Positions 16,905 to 62,684 of a stretch of 64,000 nucleotides of DNA are shown here, in pieces (the first letter of the stretch is position 1; each line of letters opens with the position of its first letter). Source of the DNA: Octopus vulgaris (taxonomy: Eukaryota); contig OX597820.1 of the NCBI GenBank assembly GCA_951406725.2, positions 73,842,001 to 73,906,000 of the forward strand. Reading direction: 5' to 3'. The notes beneath the pieces are model-generated. The model did no database searches, was not told the DNA's origin, and saw nothing but the letters and a program-made list of their open reading frames with translations. Position numbers and translations under genes: made by a program.

Positions 16905-17227
16905 TAACCTACATTGTGATTATACGTAAACACTGCTCTGCGCCGTTACTCCGATATTTTTCTCGATCGGGAAAAATAATTCAATGTGTTATCTGAATTA
17001 TATAAAAAGCGATAAGCTTTATTTAGTGCTTTCAGAGTTGTCTCTCTTAGGTAGATCTCATCGACAAGAGTCAATAAACTCGAAACATCGATGCCTGAGA
17101 TATCCGAGAGATGGTGACAACGAACAGAGTGTTTTCACACCTTTTTACCGTAAGAGAGAATTTTTTCTCCACAGTAACCTAAATTGTGATTATACGTAAA
17201 CACCGCTTTGCACCATTACTCCAATAT
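16905..17227 (+). repeat. 270-bp unit bounded by 53-bp direct repeats (retrozyme/pLTR-like)
   Basis: TAACCTACATTGTGATTATACGTAAACA.. at 16905 and 17175, 6 mismatches in 53 bp. Confidence 0.7.
17055..17101 (+). ncRNA. Degenerate minimal type I hammerhead motif
   Basis: ATCTCA-TCGACAA-GAGT..ACTC-GAAAC-ATCGAT-GCC-TGAGAT: stems I, II and palindromic III present; core and cleavage triplet mutated. Confidence 0.55.
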
Positions 17228-18260
17228 ATAAGAAACGAAACGAAACCAAACGAATCGAATCGAATCGACGCGAAGGCGCTCAGTCATACAATAGTGTAAT
17301 AAATAAAATATATGCATACATACAAACATATATGTACGTACCTACATCTACATGTATATATACATGCATATATAAATATATATACGTGTGTACAGGACAC
17401 CACAAATAGACGTAGAACTCAACGAAAAACGAAAACGTAAAAACAGCATGGAACGGACCATTCCTTTAACAACGAAAAAACAGAGTACAAGACAACTACA
17501 CAAGGAAAAATCCCATATATTTACACGTGTTTGTGTGTATGCGTGGGTTTTTACATGTGTGTGTGTGTACATGTGTCTGTATAAGAAAGAAAGAGAAAAA
17601 AGTGTTATATATTTACGCATGCAGCATATAATTGTACACACACACACACACACAAACGTAATACTTAAAACGACAAACGGCCGTGTAGTTTAATTCATAT
17701 GATCCATCCAAGCGTTCTAATCGCCCGCTCCTCAATTGAAAGACATCTTTATGACAGTATGTCAATATTTTAATTAACTGCTCATTTTAATTGATGTACT
17801 TTAAAATTGCGTAATGACAAATCACTTCAAATTATTCTCAAGTGTCGAAGTTAATTTGAAATGGGTGTTTTGTATAGAGAGAAATTATTGTGATTGTAGA
17901 AGTAGTGGATACAATGATTGTGATAGTAGTAGTAGTAATAGCAGCAGCAGCAGCAGCAACAGCAGCAGCAGCAGTAGTAGCAGTAGTAGCATTTGTAGTA
18001 GTAGTAGTAGTAGTCGTTGTACTAATAGAATGATGAGAAAAATGGAAGTGGTTTTGTGAAAGGTGACCATTGAGTTACTAAATATCACTAAGTATACGGG
18101 GTTAGTGGTGGTGTCGAAATGAATCATTCAGCTCACACATACGCGCACGCGCACACACACGTAAATGCATAGAGAGAGAGAGGGAGAGGAGGGAGAGAGA
18201 GATAAATGCGCATAAGTCGAATTACCAAAGTATTATTGAAATCGTTTGAAAAAAATGTGA

Positions 18261-18395
18261 GGCTTACCAACCACATGGTTCCGGGTTCAATTCCACTGCA
18301 TGGCACCTTGGGCAAGTGTCTTCTACTATAGCCTCACGCTGACGAAAGCCTTCTGAATGGATCTGGTAGACGGAAACTGAAAGAAGCCTGTCGTG
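18261..18395 (+). mobile_element. SINE family A, 5' half
   Basis: CCACATGGTTCCGGGTTCAATTCCACTGCATGGCACCTTGGGCAAGTG. Confidence 0.75.
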
Positions 18396-18604
18396 TATAT
18401 ATATATATATTTCCCGTACACGAAACTTTAAGTCAAACTGTTATACCAAGAATACTATTACAACTATGTTTTGACTGCTACTTCCGTTCGTTTGTTCATT
18501 CATGCATGTATATAATTCTCTCCCCCTCTCTCTCTCTCTATCTCTCACTCCATATATATATATATATATATATATATATATATATATATAAATATATATA
18601 TTGT

Positions 18605-18940
18605 GAAGGCGCATGGCTCAGTGGCTGGAGCGTCGAGCTTACGATCGTGATATTGTGAGTTAGATTCCCAGATCGGGCTGCGTGTTGTGTTCTTGAGCAA
18701 GACACTTTATTTCACAGTGTTCCAGTTCACTCTGCTGTAGAAATGAGTTGCGACGTCACTGGTGCCAAGCTGTATCGGCCTTTGCCTTTCCCTTGGATAA
18801 CATCGGTGGTGTGGAGAGGGGAGGTATGCATGGGCGACTGCTGGCCTTCTATAAGCAACCTTGCCGGACTTGTGCCTCGGAGGGTAACTTTCTAGGTGCA
18901 ATCCCATGGTCATTCATGACCGAAAGGGGTCACTCCTTTA
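18605..18940 (+). mobile_element. tRNA-derived SINE (family D-like)
   Basis: GAAGGCGCATGGCTCAGTGG head, TGTGTTCTTGAGCAAGACACTTTATTTC; sits in (TA)n. Confidence 0.7.
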
Positions 18941-59075: not shown

Positions 59076-60269
59076 ATAACGGAATGTCAAAGTCTGAAAA
59101 AAAAGGATAAATTGTAAAAAAAACTTATCTATTGTCCCTAATAAAAAAGGGAATAAGAAAAAAAAAGAAAGAAAAATATAAAGAGGGGTAAAGGGAAAAG
59201 GGTACCATGAAAATTACAGCAAAAAGACCCAGCAAAATATAAAACGCAATAGCCGTAAATATTAAAGCAAGTTTATTAGGGGGAATTAGGGCAATGCATT
59301 GTGGGAATAGGGTTGTATTGAATATCATCGCAACATCAGTTTTCGTGGATTCGACACAAAGCTTGTTATTTACGGCGCTGTGTGTTCTATTGAATGTTAG
59401 ATATGTATAGATAGATTAACGAATTTAGTAGTTGCCAGCTGTGGCAAGGAACCTGACGTATTTGTAATTAGAGACCAAATCACTGAGTGTTAGACCTTTC
59501 GGAATTTTTCAATGCAATGATAATCCCCCTTTTATAAATGTAACGATCTCGTTGATGTACACATACGCGTGCTTACACACGCACACGCGCACACACACAC
59601 ACACACACACATACACACGTACACACACACACACACACACACACATATATATGCATACCTACTTCCATATATATATATATATATATGTGTGTGTGTGTGT
59701 GTGTGTGTGTGTGTATATATATGTATATATACATATGTATATATATATATATATATGTATATACATATATATATATATATGTATATACATATACATGTAT
59801 ATATATATATATATATATATATATATATATATATATATATATATATATATATATCTGTAAATATATATATTATATATCTGTAAATAAATATATATATATA
59901 TATATATATTATATATCTGTAAATAAATATATATATATATATATATATATATATGTAAGTATGTATGTCCATATGTACGTACGCGTGCGTGTGTGTGTTA
60001 TCTTGTCATGATAAAGTATTCTTTTATGATACTTCGATTCGTCACCTTCCCATGTCCCAGTTTTTCACTTAATTTATCATCCCCTATGGCATATCTTTAG
60101 ATTGTGTGTCCGTGATATATTCGCAATTTATCACCTTTGTGAAGCCTCCAGACACCAATACTCACAAGCAGGCATTTTTACGCGCACACGCACACACACA
60201 CACACACGCACGCGCGCGCACACACACACACACACACACACACACACACACACACACACAAACACACAC

Positions 60270-60513
60270 AGAGTAATCCCTCGTCATATCGCGTTTCACT
60301 TACCGCGGTTCACCTATCGCGATTTATTATTTAAGTTCATGTCTATTTCTCCGTGGTGTTGTTTTACATTTATAATAAAACAAATATATACAAATTATAA
60401 AAATTACAAAAAAAAAACAATACAGTAGAGTACTGTTTCTACTTTGCGGATTTTCAACTATCGCGGTTTTTTTTTTGGAACGTAACACCCGCGATAGTCG
60501 AGGGATTACATTG
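60270..60513. mobile_element. Tigger/pogo-like MITE
   Basis: GTAATCCCTCGTCATATCGCG ... CGCGATAGTCGAGGGATTAC inverted termini. Confidence 0.65.
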
Positions 60514-61849
60514 TACCACAAATGCTAGTTCAAGCACGACTAAATGCACACATACCTCCACATACATACTGATGATGAGACCTAATTACAGTATTTTTTG
60601 GATATGACCAAAGGCAAACATTTGTAATTAATGGTGTCACCATCAGCTGAAGTAGTAAGTTATTGATATATGACTAATATTCTAGTGACACCACAATGAG
60701 TGTGGAAGGCGCTCTGAAATGACTTTACTCCTTTTACCTAAAGCAAGAATTTTTCTCCGTGGCAAACTACACTGAATACACCTTTTTACAGGTAAAACAT
60801 GTTTACGACATCTTTAAAGTGATCTAAGCTTTGTATATTTTTTAATATTTCAAAATATTTTATCCATCATCCTTTTACATACGAAAAGATTGTAAAATGC
60901 CGGTCCTGGATATGCAAAACAACAGCAGCAACAACAACAACAACAGCATCAACAGCAGCAGCAGTGACATGCCCCTGTTTTTTTGCAAAATCAAAGATAA
61001 TCCAATATCTTATATAGAATCGTAAAAAGAAAACTATTACATTTCTTGATTTACAGTACACAGTCTCTTTTATGCAAGAAAATTTTGCTAATTTCAAGAA
61101 TAATTTTTTATTTATTTTACATTACTGCACTGAGGACCACCCATAATCAGTAGATAATTTTTACGGATTTCTTATAAAAAGCTAAACCTGAAGTCAGATT
61201 AGAATTGCTCTGATTGGTAGCTGGTGCTGACGAGAGCACAAAAAACTCGAAATGCATCTATCATATCGTAAGGAGGCGCTCTGACTGAATTTGTGTGTTT
61301 TGACCTTTTGCCTAAAACGAGAATATTTTAACATAGCAAATCGCAGGGAAAACATTGCTTTACAAGTCAAATGTGTTCCAGACACATTTGAACTAATATC
61401 CTGTCGTTGTTTAACTCCAGGTCTATCCAAATTAATCCAACCTATTATCAAAAGATTGAACAAAGACCAGCGTTTGCAATAACGATGTTACTATTAATTA
61501 AACTAAAAAACTACAAGTACGATATCACTCTCGTATATTGCACTCTTATATTACTCCTACTTTATTTCATCAATACCATTGGCTTCTAATTAAAGTTTTG
61601 TATATGTAGTAACTGTTTAACCCCAGGCTTTCTCCGATTCACCAGACCTATGATCAAAATGCATTCCAGCCAGGTGCAGGCACAGCTGCTTGGTTAAGAA
61701 GCCCGTTTTGCAGCCAAGCAGTTTCAGTTCCAGTTCCACTGCGCAGTACCTTGGGAAAGTGTCTTCTACAATAGCTCCGGGCCGACCAATATTTTATGAG
61801 CGAACTTTTTGGGTGGAAACTGTGTGGAAGTTCATCATACGTGTATGTA

Positions 61850-62684
61850 GATGAGAACCCAATAAGGTTCGGAAATCGATTAAGGTTGTTCATCATTTTT
61901 TTCAGTCTGCAGAGTAATGGCTAAAATTTGCCCTGTTTATAATCCTACCATATGTTACATATATATTATATCATACCTTGTAGTGGGTAGCGATTTTCTT
62001 CATTACTTCAGGGAGTGACGACCCTGCCTAATACAAGTCTCGGCCTCAGCTGGCTCCGGCTGACAGTACCCGGTATGGGCCCCTATCCAGAGTTACGGAA
62101 AGGAGACAACCTTCAAAGAAATCCGGAGTGGAGCCCCGTAGGCGGTTTAGTGTTCGACTCGATACTCTTCCGGCAGCTCCTGCAACCAGGCTGGTGCCAA
62201 ACGTAATGCTCTGCACTCCTTTAAACTATGTCAGCAAGGTTGAGAGGGGAATCCTGACGATTGGGCTACCCAGGATTTTCTTACATCTAGCCCAGGCCTG
62301 TGCAAAACTGGAGTGGAAACTGGAGAGGACAGGAAATGTAAAAACCAGACTGGATTAGTTTATGCGCAACTCCATTGTCTCCCGAGACAAAAGGATGCCA
62401 ACAACAACCTTGATACTGTGTGGACTAAGATCTCCGATGACAGGCCACTGGTGTTTATAGAGTGTTAAACACTTTCGGTATGCAAATTAGGGACTCCTTC
62501 ATAGAGTAACTGGTGCATTTGTTGAGTATATAAACAGTTTGGCTGCTTGTTTCTCTGGAGACTGTCAGAAGGATGTGGACGTCTGTGATGAGAATCCAAT
62601 AAGGTTCGAAAATCGATTAAGGTTGTTCATCCGTTTTTTTTTCAGAGAAGTGGCTAAAATTTGCCCTGTTTATAATTATACCAT
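61850..62684 (+). repeat. ~100-bp direct repeats (61850-61952, 62587-62684), each starting in a decayed hammerhead-like motif
   Basis: GATGAGAA(C/T)CCAATAAGGTTCG(G/A)AAATCGATTAAGG at both positions. Confidence 0.7.
61981..62406 (+). mobile_element. Non-autonomous RTE derivative (5'UTR + 3' tail)
   Basis: CCGGAGTGGAGCCCC..CTGGTGCCAAACGTA..GGGCTACCCAGGAT resembles RTE 5'UTRs; ends GTCTCCCGAGACAAAAGGATGCC(AAC)n; possible TSD ACCTTG. Confidence 0.55.

Follow-up and report, generated by a model that had tools for sequence, protein, structure and literature searches.

What are the hammerhead ribozyme motifs scattered over one stretch of 64,000 nucleotides (nt) of the Octopus vulgaris genome (contig OX597820.1, positions 73,842,001 to 73,906,000; hereafter the window), and do they belong together? 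An earlier note on this DNA listed eight motifs, each with a self-complementary helix III, and proposed that they form a dense, multi-family ribozyme-retroelement system. We find that each of the eight is a separate insertion of its own dispersed repeat family. In the reading that we hold with good confidence, two of these families are ends of Hydra-type Penelope-like elements (PLEs), three are likely retrozyme offshoots, and the intron missing from one of the PLE ends, at 56965, was probably lost by way of spliced, uncut RNA. The features of the DNA that carry this reading are family membership, links to PLE open reading frames (ORFs), circular permutation in three families, (TA)n flanks, fold-backs, and the existence of both exon-joined and intron-bearing forms. 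As posed, the motifs are ordinary, many families of palindromic-helix-III hammerheads per animal genome having already been described. The pair at 56965 matters because it offers a direct test of intron retention in PLEs, in a genome that also has a very young intact Hydra-type PLE.

All eight motifs could be read where the earlier note had placed them and with the palindromes it gave (31703 and 31746 on the minus strand, 32951 and 32955, and 58010 and 58016 are pairs of names for the same motifs). At the level of their families all have the core CUGANGA/GAAA/UH with its described variants, paired helices I and II and a short, palindromic helix III; the core of the 32526 family, read with an extra base or as U3-G8, has no match to a described variant. 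A strict descriptor (core, helices I and II, and palindromic helix III) finds three perfect-core motifs in the window (32955, 58016 and 61227) and four near-perfect ones, with 31746 differing by one change, versus none with a perfect core and a mean of 0.25 near-perfect in 40 local dinucleotide shuffles. A widened descriptor, which admits natural core variants and was tuned on the window, finds 6 versus a mean of 0.07 in 30 shuffles, and skips 48771, 56965 and 62587, whose window copies are damaged and whose families are intact. The frequency of such motifs in shuffled sequence is therefore far below that of the window, which is 36% guanine plus cytosine (GC) and has many microsatellites, and the motifs are not due to chance. 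Only 48771 is strictly minimal, as all had been called, since the others carry a palindromic insert of 6-8 nt in a short helix III. The list of eight had also overlooked 61227 (+), 61814 (+), which is a decayed second member of the 62587 family, and two decayed motifs on the minus strand, 48634 and 49105.

Five of the window copies depart from their families at key positions. The cleavage triplet is GCC in 17055 and GTT in 58010, versus GTC in both families; 62587 has G3 versus C3 in its family (the change C3G serves as a hammerhead mutant in PMC11167929); and a helix I mismatch is private to 48771 and to both arms of 56965, where the core is perfect and the change is common to the two arms. 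Other oddities are family-wide, namely U3-A8 in 17055 and the C4, extra base and long helix II arm entered in Table 1 for 31746, 32526 and 32955. The lone and decayed copies in the window are probably inert.

Family searches of the 2.80-Gb genome, in which only the best 40 candidates were scored so that first-look candidates are not copy numbers, gave 1353 candidates for 56965, 208 for 58010, 2894 for 31746, 1496 for 32955, 397 for 17055, 1819 for 62587, 1270 for 32526, 3159 for 48771 and 4 for 61227. Scored copies of the eight families show 81-100% identity. Most family lists contain head-to-head pairs, copies abut (TA)n, and between subfamilies the palindromes change and stay palindromic (CAATTG/CGATCG, CATATG/CACGTG).

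The evidence supports the 31746 and 56965 families as ends of Hydra-type PLEs. In both, a reverse transcriptase (RT) and, at the C-terminus, a GIY-YIG-type endonuclease lie upstream of the hammerhead, in parent ORFs that were all found broken, and both show (TA)n targets, 5' truncation and an inverted 5' copy. For 31746, two of 20 upstream loci have a long extension in common, and one of the two loci gave access to an endonuclease remnant; the motif is 0.9-1.4 kb downstream of the endonuclease and on the same strand at 15 of 20 loci (the query's own included). Four of those loci also have RT remnants (L296, L309, L311 and L312), and in L296 the CxxC and CxH motifs are present and the linker is degenerate. 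For 56965, locus L376 holds an RT that is 37.7% identical to an intact 717-amino-acid PLE ORF found elsewhere in the genome (E 4e-69), together with an endonuclease (E 1e-21), running into exon 1, an intron and a hammerhead unit that is 82% identical to the window's; an inverted hammerhead copy stands at the 5' end. Locus L379 has the same arrangement, with a unit 88-90% identical to that of the window. The motifs DKT, CxCX5C, CxxC and CxH can be read in L376, L377 and L379, RWK falling in the truncated part.

The Hydra clade of C-terminal endonuclease-positive (EN+) PLEs, including Hydra-1_Obim, was described by Craig et al. 2021 (PMC8557442); here and below, what is said of a published source refers to the passages of it that were consulted. 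The intact 717-amino-acid ORF shares with this clade RWK, DKT, CxCX5C, CxxC and CxH, the 56965 parent shares DKT, CxCX5C, CxxC and CxH, and the canonical hammerhead, (TA)n targets and inverted 5' copies are further points of likeness. However, Hydra elements are described there as shorter than 3 kb, whereas in the 56965 parent the 3' region, which includes an intron, measures about 3 kb, and the hammerhead listed for Hydra-1_oBim is unlike in sequence those in the window. In that account PLEs keep their introns, unlike the joined copies of 56965. The 56965 parent ORF (L376:6311-7228, and L377) has an asparagine-rich insert between RT and endonuclease, as in the rotifer Penelope ORFs of PMC3846280. 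The 31746 parent (L295-L312) has a predicted intron of about 750 nt, with the donor at the ORF stop codon and a clear branch point and acceptor about 330 nt above the hammerhead. All 12 copies that could be followed through it keep this intron, and no clear case of joining was seen.

At 56965 the window holds two arms head to head (Table 1). Upstream of the hammerhead the family falls into two classes, which part 13 nt above the core: an intron class continues into a pyrimidine-rich tract and AG, and the other, to which both window arms belong, into a short different sequence. In L315 and L322 this short exon 1 sequence stands about 1.1 kb further up, with GTATGT directly after it. From this arrangement exon 1 of the window pair is seen to run straight into exon 2, without the GT-AG segment that measures 1.0-1.25 kb in parent copies, sits at the point corresponding to 56955/56956, and has the donor AG/GT and a pyrimidine-AG acceptor. 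The pair lacks the family's intron exactly. Exact 31-base patterns find 47 joined and 27 intron-acceptor junctions in the genome and none with controls. Among 30 loci with a long exon 1, the sequence passes on into the intron in 28 (with a mutated donor in one of them), a single locus is joined and the last has a different deletion. In 20 of 21 joined arms the match to exon 1 extends over only 7-27 nt (median 22), and in one over at least 160 nt, lengths that come from an ungapped walk and are undercounted at indels. The arms comprise 58 distinct sequences, of which 29 bear the intron, 20 are joined and 9 are of other kinds and were left out of the tree. Three haplotypes and two sets of identical rows span the joined and intron-bearing classes, and a single origin of the joined copies is allowed by none of 200 bootstrap trees. 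Moreover, L162, itself a head-to-head pair, and L090 are exon-joined in appearance and belong to diverged subfamilies.

The families of 58010, 17055 and 62587 are likely non-coding retrozyme offshoots. Each is a non-coding unit with one type I hammerhead, 280-355 nt long and circularly permuted or in tandem. For 58010 a head-to-tail pair with a 353-nt repeat occurs in L111, and downstream and upstream sequence is offset by 354 nt across copies. The 17055 unit measures about 327-340 nt by overlap only, no tandem pair having been seen, and the 62587 family has a tandem pair 278 nt apart in L238, with one unit altered. Pairs with spacings of 342 and 359 nt are among the matches listed for the core pattern discussed below. 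A search upstream of 62587 mostly hit an unrelated repeat, and 5 of its 20 loci were used. Metazoan retrozymes of the non-LTR kind (LTR, long terminal repeat) are likewise 150-450-nt non-coding units with one type I hammerhead, tandem and low in GC, and a PLE origin and mobilisation have been proposed for them (Cervera and de la Pena 2020, PMC7229834; Li et al. 2026, bioRxiv 10.64898/2026.07.22.740005). Unlike retrozymes for which circular RNA and cleavage are established, the window units are known from DNA, as partial or rearranged monomers. The palindrome would serve to pair two same-family copies within a tandem RNA, as a two-site ribozyme. In a search for RNA, no sequence record with the motif families was listed as RNA, and no circle junction was listed in run contigs. 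In contigs of runs guessed to be RNA, coverage was far deeper below the 58010-family cleavage site than above it, but the same skew appeared in two large runs whose kind is not recorded, so that it was rejected as evidence of cleavage.

The remaining families, 32526, 32955 and 48771, share (TA)n flanks and head-to-head pairs. The 32526 unit has 184 exact places in the genome and none in controls; 20 of 24 copies have their 5' end within 11 nt of one upstream point, and the other 4 extend into a TATA-like word 32 nt higher, a fixed 5' end like that of the joined 56965 copies. The 48771 family has 9 profile matches in 600 kb of unselected DNA. Decayed copies of an abundant relative of this family lie at 48600-48660 (-) and 49070-49130 (-), in a local duplication of about 460 nt, and in this relative (L120, L131 and L135) U is frequent at the normally fixed core position A6. 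The association with PLE or retrozyme repeat families that the earlier note had put forward is supported for five of the eight motifs, two being tied to Hydra-type PLE ORFs and three being circularly permuted short units.

It is likely, judging from the copies compared, that the intron is absent from the joined 56965 copies because they arose by reverse transcription of spliced, uncut RNA. A possible alternative is that they descend from one deletion at the DNA level, through AG microhomology or a template switch, in a master copy that then spread non-autonomously, with no splicing. The AG at which both donor and acceptor end, the different deletion that L369 carries at the same place and the partial clustering of the joined copies would suit such an event, but it fits poorly with canonical GT-AG boundaries and a pyrimidine tract, with identical exon-2 sequences in both classes, with joined forms that recur in diverged subfamilies and with joined copies that end at one upstream point, and we consider it improbable. 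Several observations do weigh against reverse transcription of spliced RNA and against the wider reading of the eight families. L349 is a joined copy that retains the long exon 1 noted above, and the deletion in L369, at the joining site itself, is not of the splice type. The tree is shallow, with 3 of 35 branches well supported, which force at least 3 changes, and the joined label is more clustered than in shuffles (7 changes versus 14). For neither 56965 nor 31746 did a fully intact parent ORF turn up, one unit of the tandem 58010 pair in L111 (the one pair looked at) has a changed helix III, and neither a PLE ORF link nor circular permutation was found for 32526 (38 copies), 32955 (24) or 48771 (8). 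Finally, RNA start site, splicing, cleavage and circles are predictions from the DNA.

The other alternatives concern the window as a whole, which could be a coordinated multi-family system whose ribozymes dimerise in trans, 32951 with 58010 among them, or a collection of chance matches or host-domesticated regulatory ribozymes. The window count is high by the widened descriptor, with 6 motifs versus 1.28 per 64 kb (12 at a score of at least 9 in 60 arbitrary 10-kb stretches), a Poisson P of 0.002 that comes from a descriptor tuned on the window and a window picked by scan. A palindrome-free descriptor, however, finds 4 in the window versus about 1.85 per 64 kb (22 in 760 kb, made up of 600 kb arbitrary and 160 kb adjoining the window; Poisson P 0.12), with 0-2 matches in five shuffles. 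Ten family profiles, nine of them built from the window and so favouring it, have 12 matches there, 24 in the 600 kb and 3 in the neighbouring 160 kb. Since the window exceeds unselected DNA (about 20-30 motifs per Mb) by no more than 2-5-fold and its neighbours are not enriched, the motifs are not one system and are better described as separate insertions at a density modestly above average. By extrapolation from the 600-760 kb, the genome has about 56,000-81,000 such motifs; thousands per genome are known in other animals (PMC4209133, PMC7229834). Palindromic helix III is a described, genome-wide trait, here perfect in 12 of 22 unselected motifs versus 1.3 expected, most of the others being one change off. 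At least eight further hammerhead families were met in unselected DNA (L123, L132, L139, L149, L158, L161, L172, L228 and L229), one U3-A8 family being met four times.

Two RNAs together make helix III of a double hammerhead, and each helix I consists of one RNA's 5' strand and the other's 3' strand. The palindrome ACATATGT that 32951 and 58010 share, from which a heterodimer had been suggested, is real and speaks for a link between the two, but it is common to many unrelated families: a pattern running from the core to GAAACATATGTH has 316 matches versus 5 in controls, and among the first 100 on the list helix II takes many unrelated sequences. Their cross helix I has two wobble pairs one way and none the other, so the heterodimer is not supported, a strand-swapped dimer needing a helix I between the partners. 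Among all nine motifs compared, no match of helix III between two families is accompanied by a cross helix I. Together with the private changes in five of the eight copies, this makes a coordinated system very unlikely. The case for chance or domestication draws on the Rfam covariance models, which recognise no hammerhead family in the window (best 150 of 239 rows, the rows consisting of low-complexity microRNA-like matches and one transfer RNA; none at E<=10 in two targeted stretches). Against this stand the 0-1 matches in shuffles, the placing of every motif in a repeat family with (TA)n flanks, and palindromes that vary between subfamilies yet stay palindromic, and we give that explanation hardly any credence.

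Returning to the spliced-RNA origin of the 56965 pair, we infer from the arrangement of the copies a route that begins with a promoter in the terminal repeat, which would start RNA about 25 nt above the splice donor. The intron would be spliced out, and the PLE enzyme would nick a (TA)n tract and prime inside the RNA, 100-300 nt below the hammerhead. The complementary DNA would then pass the uncut ribozyme as far as the 5' end of the RNA, where it may fold back, and a short stub would result. The downstream terminal repeat, in which the intron stays, would be the source of long copies. We lean towards the more general view that short fold-back stubs arise when Hydra PLEs of the octopus type copy back their own 5' RNA in spliced, sense and uncut form, the full-length copies owing their retained intron to the downstream terminal repeat. 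If true, this would account for the puzzle of intron retention in PLEs as well as for the lone hammerhead stubs, tens of thousands in number, whose 5' ends are fixed, and head-to-head palindromes could then not have had an antisense template. A published proposal ascribes both intron retention and head-to-head palindromes in PLEs to self-priming on such a template (PMC3846280). If the join is due to splicing, a head-to-head insertion with both arms joined cannot come from antisense RNA, and the interleaving of joined and acceptor junctions would point to spliced, sense, uncleaved RNA as the template, against that proposal.

Several steps of this route have parallels in known elements. In Penelope of D. 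virilis the intron lies 46 nt below the start site and most transcripts are spliced (Schostak et al. 2008, PMC2377424); as in the 56965 family, a short first exon and then an intron stand in the terminal repeat. Poseidon PAc of the anole has an internal RT start and an uncleaved template in vitro (Frangieh et al. 2024, PMC11167929), both of which resemble the proposed route, as do its AT-rich targets. Unlike at 56965, intron-less genomic copies are not reported in the consulted passages of these two papers. Minimal type I hammerheads with a small palindromic helix III were described in PLE terminal repeats by Cervera and De la Pena 2014 (PMC4209133), and these resemble those in the window in their type I topology, palindromic helix III, extra base at helix II and U3-A8 variant. 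Also alike are the numbers, with thousands of motifs per genome that are mostly single and belong to many families, the inverted pairs 100-700 bp apart, and the D. virilis intron that ends just above helix I. The consulted passages of that study do not cover cephalopods, and they give spliced and unspliced RNA forms, not exon-joined genomic copies. We found no report of octopus hammerheads or of intron-less PLE copies, which does not establish their absence from print.

Table 1. Hammerheads, their repeat units and PLE remnants in the window (positions counted from its first nucleotide)
Positions	Strand	Feature	Remarks
12640..12945	+	Decayed end of GIY-YIG-type PLE endonuclease	Interrupted by microsatellite
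13860..14002	-	Likely decayed C-terminus of Hydra-type endonuclease	tblastn E 0.011-0.019, marginal
17053-17101	+	Hammerhead 17055	Type I
around 17053..17101	+	17055 unit	About 330 nt, circularly permuted; terminal redundancy in window
19150..19440	+	Likely decayed Hydra-type endonuclease	tblastn E 0.02, marginal
31451..31987	-	5'-truncated 3' end of Hydra-type PLE	Family-wide C4 (CCGATGA); core matches family
31701-31754	-	Hammerhead 31746	CAGCTG insert in helix III
32340..32596	-	Young stub	Family core with extra base before UUGAAGA
32525-32571	-	Hammerhead 32526	
32865..33085	+	Stub of 32955 family	68-nt helix II arm common to family
32947-33047	+	Hammerhead 32955	Perfect core
48736..48900	+	Stub of very abundant family	True minimal hammerhead; helix I mismatch
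48767-48807	+	Hammerhead 48771	Helix III is ACGT
56675..56930	-	Left arm of head-to-head fold-back	Exon-joined; contains mirror hammerhead; ends in (TA)n
56849-56900	-	Mirror copy of hammerhead 56965	
56929..56955	+	27-nt exon 1 remnant	Joined to exon 2 at 56955/56956
56956..57107	+	Exon 2 of Hydra-type PLE terminal repeat	Hammerhead, CAATTG insert, AT-rich tail, (TA)n
56961-57012	+	Hammerhead 56965	
57845..58280	+	Part of 353-nt retrozyme-like unit	Hammerhead inside inverted copy of own downstream sequence
58008-58055	+	Hammerhead 58010	
61219..61264	+	Hammerhead 61227	Perfect core; old low-copy family, 4 matches, 78-83% identity
61814..61960	+	Second copy of 62587 family	Decayed
62407..62680	+	Part of retrozyme-like unit	About 280 nt
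62577-62625	+	Hammerhead 62587	

The PLE remnants that the earlier note had cited at 12600, 13800, 19150 and 45820 are of unequal standing. That at 12600 is borne out by its relatives (L183 and L190), which have a clearer GIY-YIG-type frame and a minimal hammerhead of their own, none of the eight, about 330 nt downstream; those at 13800 and 19150 have marginal tblastn matches to intact Hydra-type endonucleases. At 45880..45990 (+), for the fourth, there is what we take to be a possible PLE reverse-transcriptase motif, seen by eye only and with no tool support. Pfam recognised none of the four remnants, nor the intact 717-amino-acid PLE ORF. The distance from each of the four to the nearest of the eight motifs is 2-4 kb, with order or strand wrong or other repeats intervening, and no listed motif is linked to them or stands in their 3' position. 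At L230 the 12600 remnant seemed tied to the 62587 family, but this was rejected as a neighbour insertion, the remnant family having its own hammerhead. A possible further Hydra-type endonuclease remnant was seen by eye at 41892-42030 (+) (tblastn E 0.36).

The intact 717-amino-acid frame belongs to a very young Hydra-type PLE (L105:301-2451, and L106-L108) with the RT motif YKDD. All 150 scored matches to its endonuclease are 100% identical (19,947 candidates), and its own hammerhead, with a C4 core and a palindrome of odd length, occurs in both terminal repeats of L105 and L108. It was rejected as the parent of a window motif, being the parent of none. Within the window, the 56965 fold-back is abutted at 56335-56540 (-) by the end of a further repeat (1650 candidates), which likewise has (TA)n flanks and head-to-head pairs. 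It is a different repeat and was rejected as part of the 56965 element, the hammerhead occurring in none of the other loci (15 looked at). By-eye remnants of other non-LTR retrotransposons and of a mariner-like transposase lie at 23835-24524 (-), 38836-40266 (-), 43961-44260 (-) and 57240-57710 (+), and a transfer RNA gene at 8707-8779 (+) scores 71.5 bits with Rfam, its anticodon being read as TGT.

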